This document shows positions 22,299 through 48,438 of a DNA stretch of 64,000 bases, one piece after another (the stretch's first letter is position 1; each line of letters starts with the position of its first letter). Made by a program: the position numbers and the translations under genes. The notes below the pieces were generated by a model, which was given only the letters and a program-made list of their open reading frames with translations, did no database searches and had not been told where the DNA came from. Source of the DNA: a virus. Its lineage: Duplodnaviria > Caudoviricetes. Where the stretch lies: positions 243-64,242 of the IMG/VR virus record IMGVR_UViG_3300046779_000589, one strand, 5' to 3'.

Positions 22299-22487
22299 TT
22301 ACTCATCAAGATAGCGTTTTTCGATCTCTTTGACCTCAGACTCCATATCTGCATAAGCTGCGTACTCGCCTGTCAGCTTGCAGTACTCCTCGTAGCTGCG
22401 TGCAGCCCCTCCAGCGAGGGACTGCTCGATATGCGACTTGCGGTCAGCGATCCGGCGCATCAGGAGCGCGAGAATATCACTCTCCAT
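22299..22487 (-). CDS. Small helical hypothetical protein downstream of the portal
   Basis: 62 aa; overlaps the portal stop. Confidence 0.7.
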   Translation of the reverse strand: MESDILALLMRRIADRKSHIEQSLAGGAARSYEEYCKLTGEYAAYADMESEVKEIEKRYLDE

Positions 22488-24972
22488 CCTTCACCCCCTT
22501 GGGCTGCTGCGGTTGTTGCTGGGGCTGGCTGGACTGGATCAGAGTCTTGGCGACCTCGACCCCGATGCGTGCGCCTTCCATCTTCTGCTTGGCGGCATCG
22601 CCCTGCATCTGCGTGGCGAGACGCGCCCCGATCTGCGCCCCGGCCCGTTTGTCTTCGGACTTGAGGCGGTCTTCCTGCAGCTTGAGGTTCGCGGCCTTCA
22701 TCACCGTGTCGGCTTTCAACTTCTTCTCGGCCAGCGCCAGCTTGCCTTGGACCTCAATTGCCTTGATCTGGAGTTCCTGCTGCTGCATCTGGACCAGCGG
22801 GTCTTGGGCCTGCTGCTCGGCTTGCTGCTGGGCCATCTCGGCTTGGTCTTTTTGCAGCAGCTTCTCGGCAGCAACCGCAACCACACGCGACAGTTCCAGT
22901 TCGACATCTTCCGGCAGCGGCTCGTCTTGGCCGGGCATCGGGACGCCCATCTGCTTTTCGATCTCGACGCGATACTGATAGGCCACATGCTCGTTGATGT
23001 GCGCCAGCATGGCCGACTGGATGGCCTGCGCGAAGGGCGACTGGCCCACGATTTGCTGGATTTTCGGGTCTTGCATCGCGGCCATGTGGACTTGGATGTG
23101 CGCCTCGTGGTCCTGATACAGGTATGCCTTCACAGGCTCCTGCTTGAGGATGGCCATGTTCTCGGACACGGGGTCACGCGGCTTGATGTCGTCGGGCAGC
23201 TTGATGATGTCGCCCGCATCTTGGATGCCCAGCACCTCCAGCATCTGCTGGTGCAGCTTGCCCATGTCGTAGAGTTGCGGAGCCTGCTGCGCGAGTTGCA
23301 GCGCGGCCTGATACTGCATGATCCGCTGCGCCATGGTCGCGGCGTTGGGATCGGATACGGGGATCACGTCCACGGGACCACCAAAGTCCTCGCGGCGATT
23401 GAAGCCCTCGCCCACCTCGTAGTCATAGGCGTCGGGCATGTAGTCGCGGATGATCGCGGCCAGCAGGCGCAACTCGTCCTTCATAGCTGCGTGCAGGCGG
23501 GCTTGGACGCCCGACATGACCTTGAGCGACCGCTCCAGCAGGGCCAGCGTGGTGCCCACGGGGGCTTGCGCCGACATATCGCTGACCTTGAGGTCCGCCA
23601 CGGAGCCGATGCGACGACCCTCTTCCACCACGTTGCCCAGCAGGGTGTAGAGGACAGACGACGGTTCCTTGTACGGCATCGGGAACAGGCTCTCGCGGAG
23701 CGTGCCCCCCACCACGTCGGCATCGCGCCACTCGCCCGGCATCAACGGGGTGTTGTCGCCTTTGATGCGCAGAGTCTTGGCTTTCAGACCCGCAGGCAGG
23801 TTCGACAGGGTGCCTGCGTCGATCAACTGGCGCAGGATGGAGGTCGCGGACTTAGCCAGACCACCGATCAGGTGGATCAGACCCGTGCCGTAGAAGCCCA
23901 TGCCCGGCAGATAGGCGTAATGCACGAAGTGCATCCGCTTGGTCTTTTTCGGGTCATCCTCGTACCAGTTGCGACGGATCGACAGGATTGTTTTTGTGTC
24001 CTTGTCGATGGTCACGACATAGGGCCGGGCGATGCCCTCCTCATCTGCGAACGGTTCCGGCAGGTCGAGGTCCACGTGCATCTCAAGAAGAGTATACCGC
24101 GTATCACCCTGAATATAAGTCGGGTCCTGACCGTCAATCTCGTCGTACTTCTCTTCGATGTCAGTCCGCTCGGCTTGGGGTTCCGGCAAATCGACATCGC
24201 GGTAGAAACCCACCGCCTGCAGCTTCTTGATCTCGTTGTCGGTCTTCTTCATCACGTGCGTGTAGCGAGGGCACGTGCGGAGCGTGGACGCCCCGTAGGA
24301 CACCACGAAGTCTTCGGCAGGGACGAAGTTAGCCACAGCCCGTTGTTCGATGGGGTCGAAGTACAGCTTCTTGAAAGACGACCCGGCCAGCGGCAGACGG
24401 AACAACATCTGCTCCATCTCGGTGCGGTAGTCGGGCATCTCCTCGGTGATCTGGTAGTTCATCTCCTGCTCGACGCGATGCGCCTGCCGGGTCTTCTCAG
24501 GGGTGATCTTACCCACAATCTTCGTGCGGGCCGGGCCAGAGGCAGGCATCAACTCACCCATAGCCTGCGCTTGGAACCGCACCACGGCTTCGGAGAGCAT
24601 CGGGTGGTAGACCCCAGAGGCACCCATCCACGGCTGCGTCCGGTCTTCGATCTTCATGCCCAGCAGGTCCAGCCCTTTGACATAGGCCATGGCCCACTCT
24701 TTGCGGCTGTTGCGGTCGGCCAGATAGCTGTCCACCAACTCGTTGGCCAGCGTGCCAAGATCGGAGTCTTCCATCAACTCTGCGAGGTTCGCATCGTGGT
24801 CGGCGTCTTCTTCGCCCTCACTGCGCGGATCGCCAAACTCGATGACAACACCGCCGTCATCCAGTTCGATAGAGACAGCATCGGCAGGATCAGCGACTGC
24901 GATTTCGATGTCGGGCATCGCGGAATCATCCAACAGGATGTCGGACGGGGTCATAGGTTTAGCGACAGCCAT
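22477..24972 (-). CDS. Portal protein (P22-like, long Gln-rich C-terminal barrel)
   Basis: ~830 aa. SRKEWAMAYVKGLDLLG and HPMLSEAVVRFQAQA motifs; follows terL. Confidence 0.9.
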   Translation of the reverse strand: MAVAKPMTPSDILLDDSAMPDIEIAVADPADAVSIELDDGGVVIEFGDPRSEGEEDADHDANLAELMEDSDLGTLANELVDSYLADRNSRKEWAMAYVKGLDLLGMKIEDRTQPWMGASGVYHPMLSEAVVRFQAQAMGELMPASGPARTKIVGKITPEKTRQAHRVEQEMNYQITEEMPDYRTEMEQMLFRLPLAGSSFKKLYFDPIEQRAVANFVPAEDFVVSYGASTLRTCPRYTHVMKKTDNEIKKLQAVGFYRDVDLPEPQAERTDIEEKYDEIDGQDPTYIQGDTRYTLLEMHVDLDLPEPFADEEGIARPYVVTIDKDTKTILSIRRNWYEDDPKKTKRMHFVHYAYLPGMGFYGTGLIHLIGGLAKSATSILRQLIDAGTLSNLPAGLKAKTLRIKGDNTPLMPGEWRDADVVGGTLRESLFPMPYKEPSSVLYTLLGNVVEEGRRIGSVADLKVSDMSAQAPVGTTLALLERSLKVMSGVQARLHAAMKDELRLLAAIIRDYMPDAYDYEVGEGFNRREDFGGPVDVIPVSDPNAATMAQRIMQYQAALQLAQQAPQLYDMGKLHQQMLEVLGIQDAGDIIKLPDDIKPRDPVSENMAILKQEPVKAYLYQDHEAHIQVHMAAMQDPKIQQIVGQSPFAQAIQSAMLAHINEHVAYQYRVEIEKQMGVPMPGQDEPLPEDVELELSRVVAVAAEKLLQKDQAEMAQQQAEQQAQDPLVQMQQQELQIKAIEVQGKLALAEKKLKADTVMKAANLKLQEDRLKSEDKRAGAQIGARLATQMQGDAAKQKMEGARIGVEVAKTLIQSSQPQQQPQQPKGVKDGE

Positions 24973-25226
24973 CGGTGTCTCCCACAAGATTTGTGCAGAC
25001 TATAGCAGGAAACTGTGGGGATCGGGAAGCGGGATGTCATAGACCTGTATCGGGGAGGGACAATACAGAGGACATGTCCACGACACCCCGCCTCAACCGT
25101 GTGTAAGCATGGTATGAAAGGAGACCGCCATCTTACACCGCCGCTGTTTTACCCGTCATTGTCGTGACGGTCCATGCCCCACCTGCGGCTGGGGGTAATC
25201 ACCACAAAAGTACGCGCTTTGGCGCG

Positions 25227-25517: not shown

Positions 25518-27086
25518 TTAGTAGTACTCCACCTTGTGCCTGTATGGAATCTCTTCATCAGGCTCATCAGACGGCAGGCGGATAAAACCACCTTGGCGGA
25601 ACCGCATCAAGGCCATCACGCTGGAGTCAACCAAGTCGTCATGGCTGGCGAATGGGAATGCAGCGATCTCCTCGACCACCTCCTCGGCCCAACGGGTGGG
25701 CGGAACCCACACCAGACCTGACGAAATGATGTCCGAGACGGAGTTCAGGCGTGCCAGCTTGTCCCCAGTGCCCCGGTGGGGCGTATATTCGGCCACGGGG
25801 ATGCCAGAACGGCGCATTTCTTGGAAAATTGCCGTCCCTGCGGACTTTTTTTCCACGATGAAGGCATCCGGCTCCCACGAGCGGTACTCTTCAAGGCACA
25901 AAGCCTTGAGTTCGGGGAACTCCAGACGCCGTTTGATGCTGTTTAGCAGGATGATATGGTAGGCATCCCCCGCTTCCTCGTTCACAAACACGCCCCACGT
26001 CGTCAAAGCCGTGTAGTCGGCCCGGTTGTTTGTCTCTGCAGCGGCGTCGAGCGACATGATGACGTATTCGCAGTATGGCGGGCTGTCCTTGTCCCACAGA
26101 TTCCACCACTCGCGCTTGATGATGGCCGCTTCTTCCGCCGTGGGCTGCTGCTGATACTGCGCGTTCCACTGGAACACGGGCATGGACGCCTTTGTCCGCA
26201 TCAGGGCAGGCAGGTCGAAGAACTCAGGCCAGAGCGGGCGCTGGCTGTGGGTCACTTCCCCCGTCACGGGGTCTTCTTTTGACACGTCGAGGATCGCTGG
26301 GAACTCAATCACCTCGTACTGGTCGGCCCCCTCGTTCTGCGTCATGTCGCGGACCACCCGCCCCGTGAGGTCGTCCATGTGCCAGCGAGTCTGCACGATG
26401 GCCACGCGGCCCCCCGGCATCAGACGGGTGCGTGCACCGTAGGTGAACCACGCGTAAGCCTTCTCAAACACGTCGAAGTTGCCACTCAGCACGTCCTGTT
26501 CGGAGTGTGGGTCGTCCACCAGCAGCAGGTCAGCACCACGACCCGCGATGGATGAGCCAATACCGCAGGCGAAATACTCGCCGCCAAAGTTAGTGTTCCA
26601 CCGCCCAGCCGACTTACTGTCCGTGGCCAGCGAGATTGCCGGGAAACACTCGCGGTAGCGTTCCGTGTCGATCAGGTTGCGGACTTTTCGTCCGAAATCG
26701 ACCGCGAGGTCGGTCGTGTGGGACACCATCATGACCTTCTTGCCCGGATTCCGCCCAAGGAACCATGCAGGGAAGTAGATAGAGACAAGCTGCGACTTGC
26801 CGTGTCGGGGTGGGATGTTCACGCAGACCCGGTCCGCTCCCTCCTCGACGCTCGGCCCCCGTTCGATGGCCATCAACTTGTCGGCCAAGATGCGATGATG
26901 TCGGCCCACCTTATAGGTGGGGTCCATGAACAGGCAGAATGCGATCAGGTCGTCATAGGCACGCTCCCGCTCCTTACGGGCGGTGAGTTCCTCCACCAGC
27001 TTGTTCAACTCATCCACCTCGTCAGGGGACATTGTGTCCACCTGCGACAGGAGCAGGTCAATCTCGTCTTCGGTGAAGTCAGTCAC
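25518..27086 (-). CDS. terL: Terminase large subunit
   Basis: Walker A VNIPPRHGKS, Walker B LLLVDDPH, nuclease motif SLDAAAE and HDDLVDS. Confidence 0.95.
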   Translation of the reverse strand: MTDFTEDEIDLLLSQVDTMSPDEVDELNKLVEELTARKERERAYDDLIAFCLFMDPTYKVGRHHRILADKLMAIERGPSVEEGADRVCVNIPPRHGKSQLVSIYFPAWFLGRNPGKKVMMVSHTTDLAVDFGRKVRNLIDTERYRECFPAISLATDSKSAGRWNTNFGGEYFACGIGSSIAGRGADLLLVDDPHSEQDVLSGNFDVFEKAYAWFTYGARTRLMPGGRVAIVQTRWHMDDLTGRVVRDMTQNEGADQYEVIEFPAILDVSKEDPVTGEVTHSQRPLWPEFFDLPALMRTKASMPVFQWNAQYQQQPTAEEAAIIKREWWNLWDKDSPPYCEYVIMSLDAAAETNNRADYTALTTWGVFVNEEAGDAYHIILLNSIKRRLEFPELKALCLEEYRSWEPDAFIVEKKSAGTAIFQEMRRSGIPVAEYTPHRGTGDKLARLNSVSDIISSGLVWVPPTRWAEEVVEEIAAFPFASHDDLVDSSVMALMRFRQGGFIRLPSDEPDEEIPYRHKVEYY

Positions 27087-28245: not shown

Positions 28246-28274
28246 ATACTATATCAGACCATGTGACCTGTCAG
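28246..28274 (-). promoter_or_regulatory. Putative promoter of the terS/late operon (CTGACA-17-TAGTAT)
   Basis: Near-consensus sigma70 elements with a 17-bp spacer, facing terS. Confidence 0.5.
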
Positions 28275-28582: not shown

Positions 28583-28599
28583 GTTAGCAAATGGCTAAC
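28583..28599. promoter_or_regulatory. GTTAG box overlapping a start codon (GTTAGC-AAATG-GCTAAC)
   Basis: The spacer contains the ATG of 28591..29313. Confidence 0.75.
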
Positions 28600-29367: not shown

Positions 29368-29466
29368 ATGATGCGGATTCGGGATTGGTTGGCTGACGCG
29401 CTGGGCGTCGTGATGTTGTTCGGCATCCTCTACGGGGTGTTGTTTCTGGGTGCGGTGTTCGGATGA
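29368..29466 (+). CDS. 32-aa single-TM peptide
   Basis: MMRIRDWLADALGVVMLFGILYGVLFLGAVFG; followed by a terminator. Confidence 0.55.
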   Translation: MMRIRDWLADALGVVMLFGILYGVLFLGAVFG

Positions 29467-29470
29467 GGCA

Positions 29471-29502
29471 AGGGGAAGCGGCGCAAGTCGCTTCCCCTTT
29501 TT
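29471..29502 (+). terminator. Intrinsic terminator
   Basis: AGGGGAAGCGGC-GCAA-GTCGCTTCCCCT followed by TTTT. Confidence 0.85.
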
Positions 29503-29718
29503 AGTTGCGCTGCGGCTTCCCATGCAGCAAGCGGCGCGGCGCGCTATCCCTGCCGGATTCGGCGCGGCCTACGTTTCCGGCTTTCGACGCCAGTTCTCCG
29601 GCGGCAGTATGGTCTTGGCGTCTGCACCTTTTGCCTAACGCTTCTCTACAGGAATGAGACCAGTTCTCTGAGCGGCTGTGCGCCCACGCGCACGGGGCGG
29701 GCGCGGCCATGCAGGCGT

Positions 29719-29735
29719 GTTAGCGGCTGGCTAAC
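29719..29735. promoter_or_regulatory. GTTAG box (GTTAGC-GGCTG-GCTAAC)
   Basis: Abuts repeat cassette 1. Confidence 0.7.
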
Positions 29736-29812
29736 AAAAAACCCGCGCCGGTTGCGCGGGGTGCTGGACGGCTATGACGTAGTCATAGCCGGTTTTCCTT
29801 CTGGTTGTCAAG
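29736..29812 (-). ncRNA. Cassette 1: TTGACA promoter, hairpin and terminator (candidate tiny RNA gene)
   Basis: TTGACA at 29811-29806; hairpin CGGCTATGAC/GTCATAGCCG; terminator stem CCCGCGC/GCGCGGG with T6 on the minus strand. Confidence 0.5.
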
Positions 29813-29859
29813 CGGAAATTTTGCCCGATGCCAGTTCTCGGAGCAGCGGCGCGCCCAAC

Positions 29860-29936
29860 AAAAAACCCGCTCAGGTTGAGCGGGTGGCTTGGCGGCTACA
29901 ACTACGTTGTAGCCGTTTTTCCTTCTGGTTGTCAAG
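29860..29936 (-). ncRNA. Cassette 2: TTGACA promoter, hairpin and terminator (candidate tiny RNA gene)
   Basis: TTGACA at 29935-29930; hairpin CGGCTACAAC/GTTGTAGCCG; terminator stem ACCCGCTCA/TGAGCGGGT with a T-tract. Confidence 0.5.
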
Positions 29937-29954
29937 AACTTTTTTCGGCCAAAT

Positions 29955-30270
29955 GAGAACATCCTAAGTGCTTGATTTCATTATAATGTTCGTGACTTTG
30001 CGGAACAAACCATGAATGTTCGGAGAACATTCCGTCGATGCTCCTCGTAAGTCATTGATATTTGGTAATGTTCGTTCTGTTCGCACGAAAAAAGTATTAT
30101 CCGGGCGCTCGTTCGACCGACGGCAAGATGTTCGGTTTTCCGCACCCGCCAGAAACGCCCAAAAAGAATGACTAATAATAATTCTAAAAAAACATTAGAA
30201 CTTTCTAGGATTTTCAAGCACTTGCCCACACCTCACTGCGAACATTATACGAACATTTATGTTTACTAAC
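29955..30270. repeat. AT-rich region with iterated AATGTTC/GAACATT and an inverted AAGTGCTTGA pair (candidate origin/control region)
   Basis: AATGTTC at 29985, 30015 and 30067; palindrome AATGTTC-GGA-GAACATT at 30015-30031; AAGTGCTTGA at ~29966 with its complement at ~30214; GAAC-N7-GAAC at 30240-30254. Confidence 0.6.
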
Positions 30271-30397
30271 ACTTCACCATTACTCACCACCCCACACCAC
30301 CAAACAACAAACCCCGATAGGCAAAATGGGGCCAAAAACCCCCTGCCTCACAACAACCACTGCAAAATGCGATAGGAATCGACACGTTCTGTAATCA

Positions 30398-30426
30398 TTG
30401 CGCAAGAACTGATAGTTTGCTATACT
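30398..30426 (+). promoter_or_regulatory. Early sigma70 promoter TTGCGC-17-TATACT
   Basis: Exact 17-bp spacer; faces the early genes. Confidence 0.7.
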
Positions 30427-30524
30427 ATATGGACAGTTGGAAATTTAGTCAGTGAGTTGGTTGCCCGTCGGCGGTGCCCGCCCAACTGCGGCCCGCGCTC
30501 TTTTTCATTGTTGTCTCTGTCGTT

Positions 30525-30541
30525 GTTAGCTGGCTGCTAAC
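30525..30541. promoter_or_regulatory. GTTAG box (GTTAGC-TGGCT-GCTAAC)
   Basis: Lies in the early leader. Confidence 0.7.
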
Positions 30542-30629
30542 ACTCGACGCCCGCTAGGGGTGCCACCGTGCTATGCACGGCGCGGCTTGCCGCCCCCGAT
30601 CATGCTAGGGTGATGCAGGTATGTGCAGT

Positions 30630-30762
30630 GACGTTGCCCCAGCAGCGTCAGCTACCGATGATACCGTATGGTATGGCTACCCCCACGTGCCCCAGCACGG
30701 GGGAGGATAGATGCCGGAGACCAAAACCAAAAGGCCCGCTGTTGTGTAGCCCCAGCTACACA
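30630..30762 (+). ncRNA. Three hairpins sharing a GC-CCCA-GC apex
   Basis: GACGTTGC-CCCA-GCAGCGTC (30630-49), CGTGC-CCCA-GCACG (30686-99, extended by CCCC/GGGG), TGTGTAGC-CCCA-GCTACACA (30743-62). Confidence 0.7.
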
Positions 30763-30945
30763 GGAGATTGCGGATCGCAGACTGTGGCTGCGTTAAGCCC
30801 ATAAACTTCCAAGCACGATGACTCGGCTCACATACACCGCGCTGTGAAGCGCCGCGCTGCATACCCAAAGAAAACAGATTGCCAAACCCGCCGAGCGGCA
30901 CAGACGCCGCATGGAACGGGCGAGACAAACTGACGGGCAACAACG

Positions 30946-31028
30946 GTCGAAACCAAGGGGCGGCGCTACGCTATGCTTCGCCCCATTGGTCTGATGCAGA
31001 TGGTTCCTGCATCACTGACGAGACAACC
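30946..31028 (+). ncRNA. Type II hammerhead ribozyme; predicted cleavage after GUC at 30991
   Basis: GAAA at 30949-52; stem III ACCAA-GGGGCGG/TCGCCCC-A-TTGGT; GUC; stem I TGATGCAG/CTGCATCA; CUGACGA at 31015-21; stem II GTC/GAC; pseudoknot loop-I GGUU with 3' AACC. Confidence 0.9.
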
Positions 31029-31056
31029 CACAAACCCACCAAGCCAAGGACCAACC

Positions 31057-31275
31057 ATGACCATTAAGAACAAAATCACCAAGACTTGGGACGGTCGCAT
31101 CGTTGACGACCACAACAACCTTCATGTTGTGGAAGCCTTCAACGACCACGGCACTATGAAGGCCGGAAACACCTACATCATGGAGCGTCACGGGCGCATT
31201 GCCCCAGTGCTTGTCACCTCGACGGTGTGGAACGCGATGCAGAAAGCCTGCGCCGCATACAACTCCAACCGCTAG
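31057..31275 (+). CDS. Early hypothetical protein, first gene after the ribozyme
   Basis: AAGGA RBS; 72 aa. Confidence 0.7.
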   Translation: MTIKNKITKTWDGRIVDDHNNLHVVEAFNDHGTMKAGNTYIMERHGRIAPVLVTSTVWNAMQKACAAYNSNR

Positions 31276-31306: not shown

Positions 31307-31723
31307 ATGACCAACCTGAACAAAGAAGCCGCAGCCGATGTTGCCGCGACCAACGCAACGCTGTCCGCCACGGGTGGCGTGTCGCCCATGCCCAAGCAGA
31401 CCATCTGGTCCTCGCGTGTCCCCCTGCAGGACCGCACCATCCGCTTCGGGATCGCTGCCGAGACGCTCACGGCCATTGCCGAGATCACGGGCAACCAAGC
31501 CCTCCACCATGCCATTGGCTACCTGACGCAGTGGAACCTCGCCCATCCGTTCTGCGAGATCATCGGCGGTGTCTATGACGGGACGCCCGAACTCGTTGCG
31601 ACCTACCGCAAGGAAGAGCGCGGCCCCATCACCTACCAGATCGGTGCGGTGTGGCATGAGGGCAAAGCGATTGATGGCATGACGGGCGACACCGTGGCCG
31701 GACACTTCGGGTTCCATTCGTGA
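31307..31723 (+). CDS. Early hypothetical protein
   Basis: AAGGAG RBS; 138 aa ending GHFGFHS. Confidence 0.7.
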   Translation: MTNLNKEAAADVAATNATLSATGGVSPMPKQTIWSSRVPLQDRTIRFGIAAETLTAIAEITGNQALHHAIGYLTQWNLAHPFCEIIGGVYDGTPELVATYRKEERGPITYQIGAVWHEGKAIDGMTGDTVAGHFGFHS

Positions 31724-34131: not shown

Positions 34132-34365
34132 ATGAGCCTTAAGAACTTCCAAGCGGCCTTCGACGCGCTGCCCGAAGGGGCAGACGGCGAGGATATCGCT
34201 GACTTCCTCGCAGGGGTGGCTGTGTCCTACATGCCCCCCGACGAAGCGATCCGCACGCTGTTCCGTGCGGCAAAGACGGTGGCCGAGTATGTCGCCGATA
34301 TGGAGGGGCAGGAGTGTAACTGCCCCAAGTGCACAGAACGCCGCGCAGCAGAAACTAAGCATTAA
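34132..34365 (+). CDS. Hypothetical protein
   Basis: 77 aa with C-terminal CNCPKC. Confidence 0.7.
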   Translation: MSLKNFQAAFDALPEGADGEDIADFLAGVAVSYMPPDEAIRTLFRAAKTVAEYVADMEGQECNCPKCTERRAAETKH

Positions 34366-46183: not shown

Positions 46184-46607
46184 CAAGCAGCGGGAACATG
46201 GGGTCAGCTACGGGCTGGCCGAGGCGGGCTACGACATCCGCATCAAGCAGGACATCGTGTTCTACCCTGCGGACAACCAACTGACGGTGGACGGCGAGTG
46301 GGTCAAGGGCCGCTTCACCATCGCCTCTGCGCTGGAAGAGTTTACTCTGCCTGATGACTTGGTGGGTGTGGTGCATGACAAATCCACGTGGGCACGGAAG
46401 GGTCTGTCGGTGTTCAACACCGTGCTGGAACCCAAGTGGCAGGGCTTCCTGACCCTTGAGTTGGTCTATCACGGGGGTGAGACGCTACACATTCCGGCAG
46501 GTGCGGGCATCGCACAGGTGCTGTTCCACAAGATCGAAAACACCGCCGCCTACAGCGGCAAATATCAGAACCAAGCCGACGCGCCTGTCGCGGCTAAGTT
46601 TGAGTGA
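46125..46607 (+). CDS. dcd: dCTP deaminase/dUTPase superfamily protein
   Basis: SYGL..AGYDIR, HDKSTWARKG, NTVLEPKWQGFLTLEL, IAQVLF and Y.GKYQNQ. Confidence 0.85.
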   Translation: MIVNGKSLLKAAPIKGMLADKQREHGVSYGLAEAGYDIRIKQDIVFYPADNQLTVDGEWVKGRFTIASALEEFTLPDDLVGVVHDKSTWARKGLSVFNTVLEPKWQGFLTLELVYHGGETLHIPAGAGIAQVLFHKIENTAAYSGKYQNQADAPVAAKFE

Positions 46608-46611
46608 GAAC

Positions 46612-48438
46612 ATGGACGTATACACGCTCGACTTCGAAACCTACTACAGCCAGACCTTCTCGCTGTCGAAGATGACGACCGAAGAATATGTCCGCAGTCC
46701 TGAGTTCGAAGTCATCGGGCTGGGCATCAAGTGCAACAACGGCCCGACCTTCTTCTATCCGAAGCACATGGTCGGCGCGGTTCTGCGTGAGATCGACTTC
46801 TCCAATGCGGGCATCCTCTGCCACAACACCATGTTCGATGGGGCGATCCTGTCGTGGCATTACGGTGTGCGCCCGAAGGTCTGGTTTGACACGCTCTGCA
46901 TGGCCCGTGCCGTGCACGGCATCGAAAAGAGCGCCAGCCTCAAGGCGCTGGCTGAGAAGTACGGTATCGGGGAGAAAGGCACCGAGGTGCTGAACGCCTT
47001 GGGGAAACGCTACAACGATTTCACCGAGGAAGAACTTGCAGCCTACGGCAGCTACTGCGCCAATGACGTGGACCTCACCTACAAACTCTTTACCCTGATG
47101 GGTCAGGAGTTCCCGAAGAACGAACTCAAGCTGATTGACCTAACGCTGCGGATGTTCATCAATCCGATCCTGCAACTCGACACCGAGAAGCTGGAAAAGC
47201 ACCTGATGGCGACCGTGGCGCAGAAGGATACCCTGCTGGTCGAGGCGGGCGTGACCAAAGACGACCTCATGTCTAACCCGAAGTTTGCGGAACTGCTGCG
47301 TGGGTTCCGTGTGACGCCGCCGACCAAGATCAGCCCGACCACGGGCAAGGAGACGTTGGCGCTGGCCAAGTCCGACGAGGGCTTCAAGGCGCTGGCCGTG
47401 CATGAGGATGCACGGGTGCAGGCGCTGGTCGCAGCCCGTCTGGGTAACAAGTCCACGCTGGAAGAAACCCGCACCCAGCGCTTCATCGACATCTCCAAGC
47501 GCGGCTCCCTGCCTGTCCCCGTGCGGTATTACGCAGCGCATACGGGGCGCTGGGGCGGCGACGACAAGATCAATCTCCAGAACCTGCCGAGCCGTGGGCC
47601 GAACGCGAAGAAGCTGAAAAAGGCTATCATCGCGCCGGAAGGCTACACCATCGTGGAGTCGGACTCGTCACAAATCGAAGCCCGCACCCTTGCATGGCTT
47701 GCTGGACAGGAAGACGTTGTGGAGACCTTCGCGGCCAAGGGCGATGTCTACAAGAAGATGGCGTCGGTGATCTACGGCGTCTTGCTGGACGAGGTGACAA
47801 AGGACCAGCGGCACGTGGGTAAGACCACGGTGCTGGGCGCAGGTTACGGCATGGGGGGCGAGAAGTTCCAAGCCGCCCTCAAGAACGGCTTCCCGTCGGT
47901 TGACCTACCGCTGCACGAATGCAAACGCATCATCGCGGTCTACCGTGAGGCCAACTGGGCGATCTCCGACCTGTGGAAGCGGGCAGGCGTCATGCTGCAA
48001 TACCTTGCACGGGGGGACAGTATCCCGTTTGGTCGTGACGGCCTTCTGGTGCCCGACCCCGAAGTTCCCGGCGTTCGCCTGCCGAATGGGTTGCTGATCC
48101 GCTATGACGGCCTACGGGCGCAGCAGGGTGAGAAGGGCGTGGAATACGTCTACGACACCCGCAAGGGGCCGAGCCGCATCTACGGCGGCAAGGTGATCGA
48201 AAACGTCACGCAAGCCCTCGCCCGCATCATCATCGGGGAGCAGATGCTCCGTATCGCCAAGCGGTATCGTGTGGTCTTGACTGTGCATGACAGTATCGTG
48301 TGCTGTGTGCCTGACGAGGAAGCCGAAGCCTGCCGTGCATACGTGGAAGAATGTATGCGGTGGGTGCCTGCATGGGCCACGGGCCTGCCCGTCGATTGCG
48401 AGTCCGGTATCGGCAAAACCTATGGAGACTGCGAATGA
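46612..48438 (+). CDS. polA: DNA polymerase family A with 3'-5' exonuclease
   Basis: Exo I LDFETY, motif A DSSQIEAR, motif B KTTVLGAGYG, motif C TVHDSIV; start reassigned to ATG 46612. Confidence 0.95.
   Translation: MDVYTLDFETYYSQTFSLSKMTTEEYVRSPEFEVIGLGIKCNNGPTFFYPKHMVGAVLREIDFSNAGILCHNTMFDGAILSWHYGVRPKVWFDTLCMARAVHGIEKSASLKALAEKYGIGEKGTEVLNALGKRYNDFTEEELAAYGSYCANDVDLTYKLFTLMGQEFPKNELKLIDLTLRMFINPILQLDTEKLEKHLMATVAQKDTLLVEAGVTKDDLMSNPKFAELLRGFRVTPPTKISPTTGKETLALAKSDEGFKALAVHEDARVQALVAARLGNKSTLEETRTQRFIDISKRGSLPVPVRYYAAHTGRWGGDDKINLQNLPSRGPNAKKLKKAIIAPEGYTIVESDSSQIEARTLAWLAGQEDVVETFAAKGDVYKKMASVIYGVLLDEVTKDQRHVGKTTVLGAGYGMGGEKFQAALKNGFPSVDLPLHECKRIIAVYREANWAISDLWKRAGVMLQYLARGDSIPFGRDGLLVPDPEVPGVRLPNGLLIRYDGLRAQQGEKGVEYVYDTRKGPSRIYGGKVIENVTQALARIIIGEQMLRIAKRYRVVLTVHDSIVCCVPDEEAEACRAYVEECMRWVPAWATGLPVDCESGIGKTYGDCE

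Follow-up and report, generated by a model that had tools for sequence, protein, structure and literature searches.

Hammerhead ribozymes have been known in phage operons since 2011. Those of type II process the polycistronic transcripts of phages and prophages (RF02276; Perreault et al. 2011, PMC3088659), and in the majority of them a pseudoknot is formed between loop I and the tail (PMC3088659). The candidate ribozyme considered here shares with these phage-operon hammerheads the core, the strand order, the pseudoknot and the position between units of a phage operon, while it differs from them in that the unit to be cut off is a 0.5-kb non-coding RNA and not a gene, and in an unusually long stem III, which is not scored by Rfam. 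Another related system is HHphage, the hammerhead found in the early transcript of the haloarchaeal viruses HF1 and HF2 (PMC3088659), which like the present one is located just upstream of the first early ORF, the mature mRNA starting at the cut. Unlike the present one it belongs to another host domain and is a variant ribozyme, and a conserved structured RNA upstream of it is not described in PMC3088659.

The early transcript of phage T7 is similar in that a few hundred untranslated nucleotides lie between the early promoters and the first gene and are freed by an endonucleolytic cut. The T7 leader is removed by host RNase III at site R0.3. There the host enzyme cuts a long duplex, whereas in the present case self-cleavage is predicted and the leader possesses a conserved higher-order structure. 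In size (~0.5 kb), ornate multi-helix fold and invariant loops the leader resembles the large RNAs GOLLD (RF01998), ROOL (RF03087), OLE and HEARO. GOLLD and ROOL are like it also in their phage location; the leader has no sequence or structure match to any of the four at E <= 10. GOLLD, ROOL, OLE and HEARO are stand-alone genes, often near tRNAs, and are not known as ribozyme-terminated leaders.

The processing of phage operons by ribozymes and the hammerhead before the first early ORF of HF1/HF2 are already published (PMC3088659), while the new element is a predicted RNA of ~0.5 kb and of an uncatalogued family, supported by covariation, which lies in the early leader and is ended by a hammerhead. 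The module is small and self-contained, consisting of a promoter, an RNA and a ribozyme, and the unit cut off would be a conserved folded RNA that is expected before any phage protein.

The stretch of DNA analysed (hereafter the window; 64,000 nucleotides, positions 243 to 64,242 of the IMG/VR record IMGVR_UViG_3300046779_000589) is nearly the whole of a 64,242-bp phage genome, and its closest cultured phages reach a TerL identity of only ~45%. The features that define the setting of the leader are the following.

Left of the gene-free gap, minus strand: structural and packaging genes.
22477 to 24987, minus strand: portal gene.
25518 to 27086, minus strand: TerL.
~29467 to 31056: gene-free gap (~1.6 kb) between the minus-strand structural block and the plus-strand early block.
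30398 to 30426, plus strand: predicted early promoter (TTGCGC, 17-nt spacer, extended -10 TGcTATACT).
31044 to 31275, plus strand: Shine-Dalgarno sequence AAGGA and first early gene (72 aa, ATG at 31057).
31057 to ~55860, plus strand: small early genes and replication genes in one long block.

The leader (30433-30991) sits in the right-hand third of the gap. Third-position GC shows no frame preference over ~29440-31040 and reaches 0.75-0.88 in the flanking genes. A preliminary description had presented 30433-30991 as an ORF-free region of 560 nt, which was right as to the lack of a coding signal and too narrow in extent, since the gap is wider (~29467-31056) than these 560 nt. Upstream of the promoter the gap also contains terminator cassettes and an AT-rich repeat region. 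The former are two tandem 80-nt units at 29733-29936 (81% identical, spacing 124 nt), each of which has two terminator-like hairpins placed back to back, one for the minus and one for the plus strand, the changes in the second hairpin being compensated. The AT-rich region (29980-30270, core 30044-30092; 38-46% GC) carries repeated AATGTTCG/CGAACATT motifs and could be an origin or a regulator array; a 47-nt element within it is the only part of the gap recognisable in the distant relatives L246-L256 (~79% identity). Elsewhere in the window ARAGORN calls a 91-nt tRNA-Tyr on the minus strand (46495-46585) that overlaps the start of the plus-strand DNA polymerase ORF (46456-48438); this tRNA may be an erroneous prediction or else an unusual nested gene.

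Homologues of the leader were found by a metagenome scan with the 138-aa early protein (31307-31723 in the window), followed by a look-up of the contigs of the closest relatives. This yielded only two full leader homologues, both metagenomic, namely L243 (an NCBI metagenome contig of 5.5 kb, identical to L202) and L245 (a Logan assembly contig), together with the fragment L244, which comprises no more than the ribozyme and matches L243 exactly over it. The window is 90% identical to L243 over 30651-31064 and 100% identical over 30763-30880 (~110 nt), and L245 is ~79% identical in the core. The predicted RNAs are of comparable length, ~558 nt in the window and 538 and 508 nt in the two homologues, and about eight invariant sequence blocks are common to all three. 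The first 115 nt of the window RNA are unlike L243 and L245, which resemble each other, and the gene following the ribozyme also differs (72 aa in the window, 84-85 aa in L243 and L245), so that the 5' domain and the downstream gene are exchanged around a core and a ribozyme that remain joined. The core plus ribozyme is therefore regarded as the conserved unit. In L243 and L245 the RNA begins with an A-rich stretch that lacks structure, a feature that does not argue for a stable RNA.

The promoter TTGCGC-17-TATACT, which had been proposed at first reading, is present, with the -35 at 30398-30403, the -10 at 30421-30426 and a TG at 30418-19 that makes the latter an extended -10; transcription would be expected to start near 30433-30434. 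The matching place holds TAGACA-17-TGcTATTCT in L243 and GAGACA-17-TGcTATAAT in L245, so that the three sequences share the motif (-35-like hexamer, 17-nt spacer, TGcTATAnT) within flanking DNA that does not align. TGNTATANT occurs only 4 times in 64 kb with both strands counted. The -35 matches at only 3/6 positions, and a generic promoter scan did not list the site. According to these data it is a sigma-70-type promoter, conserved in the relatives, whose activity is predicted. Of the remaining three extended -10 motifs, two (28248-28256 and 24999-25007, minus strand) immediately precede, in the correct orientation, the terminase block and the portal gene; they are likely host-type promoters for the minus-strand genes.

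At the 3' end of the leader a hammerhead had been proposed as well, and the site was found to be complete.

30946 to 31028, plus strand: predicted type II hammerhead, in the order GUC, GAAA, long stem III, GUC, stem I of 8 bp, CUGACGA, GAC.

Every nucleotide of the hammerhead core is present in the type II order, in which stem II is open and the other two stems are closed. GAAA (30949-52), CUGACGA (31015-21) and the GUC that ends at 30991 are identical in L243, L244 and L245 and agree with the hammerhead consensus of CUGANGA, GAAA and an NUH cleavage triplet with A15.1-U16.1; cleavage is predicted after C30991. The variable parts covary in the homologues. Stem I is formed by UGAUGCAG/CUGCAUCA in the window, by CACGGG/CCCGUG in L243, where it is wholly replaced with pairing retained, and by CGGUGCAG/CUGCAUCG in L245, in which one pair of stem I and one of stem III (A-U to G-C) are changed on both sides. 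The pseudoknot pairs GGUU of loop I (31002-05) with AACC (31025-28) on the 3' side of stem II; in L243 it is rebuilt through a 4-nt insertion as UGAUC:GAUCA, and L245 allows only 3 bp. Stem II (GAC/GUC) has only 3 bp and is invariant, and stem III is unusually long, with 33-63 nt between its outer pairs. Even with the 116 nt searched in isolation and at E <= 10, Rfam gave no match to a hammerhead, so that the gathering threshold of RF02276 is not reached; probably it is the long stem III that defeats this model. We take the hammerhead as genuine, its cleavage being predicted from anatomy and covariation. A motif scan specific for this layout returned only this site in the window, and in 670 kb of related loci only three sites, all adjoining homologues of the 138-aa early gene. 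Two of these three are the type II hammerheads of L001 (4276-4340) and L002 (4260-4325), which pass the RF02276 cut-off of 37 (50 and 38.8 bits, respectively) and lie directly after the homologue of the 138-aa gene, unlike the junction used in the window; from this difference it appears that hammerheads move between junctions of the early operon.

Between promoter and ribozyme the leader can be divided into the following parts, with the helices as predicted.

30434 to 30547, plus strand: variable 5' domain, without alignment to L243 or L245 except for GCUCUUU and a GUUAG...CUAAC hairpin.
30548 to 30612, plus strand: domain 1, an invariant helix (CGCCC-G-CUAG / CUAG-GGUG) around a variable hairpin insert.
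30619 to 30835, plus strand: long-range helix P2 of 7 bp, GUAUGUG (30619-25) with CACAUAC (30829-35).
30630 to 30649, plus strand: hairpin 1, 8-bp stem and CCCA loop.
30654 to 30681, plus strand: conserved block ACCGAUGAUACCGUAUGGUAUGGCUACC, partly a small hairpin, with 18 nt invariant in all three sequences.
30681 to 30703, plus strand: hairpin 2, 9 bp with a bulged A and an invariant CCCA loop.
30704 to 30742, plus strand: AGGAUAGAUGCCGGAGA block, with 17 nt invariant in all three sequences, then an A/C-rich loop closed by GCC/GGC.
30743 to 30762, plus strand: hairpin 3, 8-bp stem and invariant CCCA loop.
30763 to 30828, plus strand: GGAGA, hairpin GCAG/CUGC (30777-91) and a small hairpin (30812-28).
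30836 to 30941, plus strand: variable 3' domain with hairpins GCGC-UGUGAA-GCGC and CCCG...CGGG.

In the 5' domain the CAGUUGG/CCAACUG hairpin (30435-41/30482-88) is followed by the GCUCUUU block common to all three (30497-503) and by a GUUAGC-N5-GCUAAC hairpin (~30524-42), to which a GUUAG...CUAAC hairpin corresponds at the same position in L243 and L245. The insert of domain 1 and hairpin 1 are wholly different in sequence in each homologue and each still forms a hairpin: the former is GGGG...CCCC with two sub-hairpins in the window, CCCGCGC/GUGCGGG in L243, and AUGUGG/CCACGU plus CGUC-GUGA-GACG in L245, while hairpin 1, whose CCCA loop is found in two of the three, reads GUUAGUC-CCCA-GACUAAU in L243 and GAGUUAGC-caagcc-GCUAACUC in L245, the stem being replaced and the hairpin retained. 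Helix P2, with arms 210 nt apart, closes the conserved core; in L245 it becomes CAUUGUG / CACAAUG, with three pairs changed on both sides and none broken. Hairpin 2 differs from that of L245 by three pairs changed on both sides, and in L243 its A mismatch is repaired and one C-G becomes U-G. Hairpin 3 has the stem UGUGUAGC/GCUACACA in the window and GGUUAGUC/GACUAA(U/C)C in L243 and L245, five of the eight pairs being changed on both sides. Other elements of the core are the helix CCGC/GCGG (30736-39/30770-73), the invariant 18-mer CAUAAACUUCCAAGCACG (30800-17), the GCAG/CUGC hairpin, which turns into GCAUC/GAUGC in L245, and a pairing of GGCU (30675-78) with AGCC (30796-99) that is predicted by RNAalifold and does not vary.

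The 3' domain, which includes the GCGCTGTGAAGCGC hairpin (30839-52), is ~95% identical to L243, and L245 has a shorter unrelated sequence instead. The three CCCA hairpins announced in the preliminary description are thus at hand (C-CCCA-G at 30630-49, 30681-703 and 30743-62), and the other helices listed there were all located; the 5' 115 nt with the CAGTTGG helix proved to be unconserved, and the domain of the GCGCTGTGAAGCGC hairpin is replaced in L245. A 10-bp end-to-end helix, in which GACGGGCAAC (30932-41) can pair with GUUGCCCGUC (30460-69), was left out of the consensus, its p value being ~0.003 in the window and not significant in L243 or L245.

The comparison of homologous leaders that had been proposed as a check of structural conservation gave a positive result. 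RNAalifold on the three-sequence alignment, in which two sequences are close and the structure is scored on its own source alignment, predicts 108 leader pairs, and 24 of these are changed on both sides, as against 1-5 when the 3' partners are slid by 1-3 columns; paired cells amount to 91% in the consensus and 30-37% in the slid controls. With so few sequences the statistical depth of the covariation is small. Pairs changed on both sides include 3 in P2, 3 in hairpin 2, 5 in hairpin 3 and 1 in P8, and only 45 of the 79 pairs of a hand-curated consensus occur in the unconstrained single-sequence fold of the window RNA. Between the window and L243 the unpaired columns of the core are 98.9% identical and the paired columns 86%, which means that substitutions are almost confined to stems and are compensated there; the adjacent shared gene, for comparison, is 87% identical at third codon positions. 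For L245 the corresponding figure is only 68%, in spite of which blocks of 17-18 nt show no change. Judged by these identities, the constraint on the leader is stronger than that on the neighbouring proteins, and the comparison as a whole supports the leader as a conserved, non-coding, structured RNA module.

That the region might encode one or more small proteins was considered on the basis of plus-strand ORFs of 25-78 aa, one of which (MVWLPP...) starts at a conserved ATG. The longest begins with GTG and has 78 aa. Third-position GC is unbiased, none of the ORFs is preserved in frame or ends across the window, L243 and L245, the indels are not multiples of three, and the substitutions keep base pairs rather than codons. 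The absence of a convincing long ORF, claimed at the outset, was borne out also in that none is conserved in the two homologues, and a coding function is hardly credible.

Single-sequence folding is less informative. The leader folds better than shuffled sequences (z = -3.1), and this is weak evidence because the reverse complement folds similarly well (z = -2.8); G-U pair counts do not separate the strands either, and the reverse complement gives a similar alifold energy. The plus strand is assigned because the promoter is conserved, the ribozyme is fused to the leader and the operon runs in this direction. The equal folding of both strands is one of the arguments for a DNA-level element, that is, a replication origin, a packaging site or an operator array with the palindromes acting as double-stranded DNA or cruciforms, and it is joined by the AT-rich repeat region just upstream and by the GTTAGC-N5-GCTAAC palindrome at 30525, which belongs to a family of 11 sites. 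Such an element is nevertheless very improbable: a 7-bp helix with arms 210 nt apart and three compensatory changes, and helices built around variable inserts, make sense in a single-stranded molecule rather than in double-stranded operators, the CCCA loops are asymmetric and invariant, and a ribozyme of the same strand is fused to the region.

No described family was recognised in the leader at first sight, and the searches agree. Rfam 15 on the whole window at the gathering score gave no family match to the leader, nor did the leaders of L243 and L245 give any at that score. In the scan of 2 kb at E <= 10 the only match inside 30433-30991 was c4-a1b1 on the minus strand (12.5 bits, E = 8), with none there to GOLLD, ROOL, HEARO, OLE, CsrB/Rsm, 6S or riboswitches. 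The region had no blastn match in GenBank phages. Among 80 IMG/VR relatives by TerL (73-79% aa identity) neither leader similarity at the nucleotide level, nor a covariance-model match, nor a hammerhead was found, and the 72-aa first gene had no relative among the IMG/VR relatives searched. A covariance model of 30650-30836 run against 717 kb of related loci returned only its three training sequences, and exact patterns from three invariant blocks gave only chance matches in coding DNA in IMG/VR and GTDB genomes. A three-hairpin pattern (GCCCCAGC three times) hit in IMG/VR only tandem repeats unrelated to the leader RNA.

The same early operon is present in the more distant relatives L246-L258, which carry a homologue of the 138-aa protein at 70-73% identity and the layout TerL, ~210-aa gene, ~1 kb gene-free gap and early genes. 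In these relatives a promoter (TTGACT-17-TATTCT) and ~65 nt of UTR form the end of the gap, and neither leader RNA nor hammerhead is present, from which it follows that the module is dispensable for expressing the operon. On the loci compared here, leader and ribozyme are an accessory module of a small phage lineage.

This narrow distribution, with three sequences only, none further in the 717 kb of related loci or in the pattern scans of IMG/VR and GTDB, and with mosaic borders, might be expected of a selfish or hitch-hiking RNA module that entered the early leader of one small phage lineage, or of a decaying remnant, in either case of little benefit to the phage. We regard this as improbable in view of the strong purifying selection on unpaired positions and of stems compensated across ~30% synonymous-site divergence; moreover, no integrase, second ribozyme or border repeats were found. 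In the 138-aa protein itself an N-terminal extension of ~40 aa is present in the window and in the homologues of the two leader-bearing contigs (128-140 aa in total) and is lacking in all leaderless relatives (86-111 aa); given three genomes, this co-occurrence may be a coincidence.

The reading that we tentatively prefer, with somewhat less than even confidence, is that of a self-contained early RNA freed by self-cleavage and serving as a protein-binding scaffold or decoy; its transcription, cleavage, stability and function in trans are what we infer from the sequence. Host RNA polymerase would start at the extended -10 promoter (30398-30426) and would produce first a non-coding RNA of ~560 nt (about 510-540 nt in the homologues), the core of which (~30548-30835) would fold as a multi-helix structure closed by the 7-bp long-range helix and display the three CCCA-loop hairpins together with several invariant single-stranded blocks. 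Once transcribed, the hammerhead would cut after C30991. Because hammerhead chemistry is established, the nature of both products can be predicted: the leader would end in a 2',3'-cyclic phosphate two bases behind the 11-bp hairpin of stem III, and the mRNA would begin with a 5'-OH and the 8-bp hairpin of stem I, 65 nt before the first start codon. The released RNA would then be bound by protein through its invariant loops, and the role of the ribozyme would be to separate the leader from the genes behind it, the leader not being their regulator.

The main rival is a purely cis-acting leader that controls the early operon, with the cut-off piece as waste, for example through cleavage timed by folding, through masking of the first ribosome-binding site until cleavage, or through protection from Rho or RNase. 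Every early mRNA does pass through the leader, with no other promoter at 30427-31057, RNAalifold pairs a shared UCUUUG with CAAGGA of the ribosome-binding site in all three sequences, and in HF1/HF2 the hammerhead lies 13 nt before the first early ORF, the 5' end of the mRNA having been mapped close to the cut (PMC3088659). Against this, sister phages have the same operon without such a leader, the pairing of UCUUUG with CAAGGA is without variation and the conservation of each partner can be explained otherwise, and a structure of ~300 nt, with its invariant loops and junctions and its compensated stems, goes far beyond what an insulator or an anti-Shine-Dalgarno element needs. We therefore consider control in cis a real possibility of distinctly lower probability. 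A leader working on its own is preferred on three grounds: the sister phages lack it, strong constraint is seen in its loops and junctions, and it remains linked to the ribozyme while the neighbours are swapped.

As to the partner of such an RNA, no candidate binding protein was found for the leader. A protein sponge of the CsrB/Rsm type would carry many GGA motifs exposed in its loops; the GGA motifs common to the three sequences without change number only three (one in AGGAUAG and two in GGAGA), by estimate no more than chance in 560 nt. The complementarity of the leader to the early operon (33 10-mers, shuffle mean 19 and maximum 36) gives no signal. N4-like hairpin promoters were considered for the CCCA hairpins, and searches of Pfam and PHROGs with ten large ORFs each gave no RNA-polymerase match; some matches in the PHROGs scan of large ORFs were to families without annotation. 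Put-type antitermination reportedly depends, from work on HK022, on an RNA link to the transcribing polymerase, and it fits poorly as a role for the leader because the ribozyme would sever the RNA from that polymerase. The functions first suggested for the RNA, as sponge, antitermination element or anti-defence factor, are thus to be taken as guesses.

A more far-reaching reading is that of a general and undescribed habit of phages, in which the first early transcript is a ribozyme-freed structured non-coding RNA that acts in trans as infection begins, perhaps by titrating a defence protein or an RNA-binding protein of the host; we consider it rather unlikely. If action in trans were true, the leader would be an early phage effector of a new kind, consisting of RNA, and would provide a concrete job for this ribozyme class in bacteria.

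The GUUAGC-N5-GCUAAC hairpin of the 5' domain is one of a family of GTTAG-N7/8-CTAAC hairpin palindromes, of which 11 were observed across the window and 0.12 expected.

28486, 28583, 29719, 30525, 33079, 34114, 35214, 36349, 49373, 52780 and 55920: GTTAG palindromes.

All of them are placed between genes or in the control region, and their sixth pair covaries (C-G or T-A). One loop contains the start codon of the gene at 28591, and another contains GGAGG, 2 nt ahead of the gene at 34132. Since their loops vary in length, the palindromes are provisionally interpreted as RNA hairpins to which a phage factor would bind, rather than as DNA operators. L243 and L245 have the same GTTAG stem, even around CCCA loops, and relatives of the L247 type carry CTAGTC-N4-GACTAG boxes at the same junctions.
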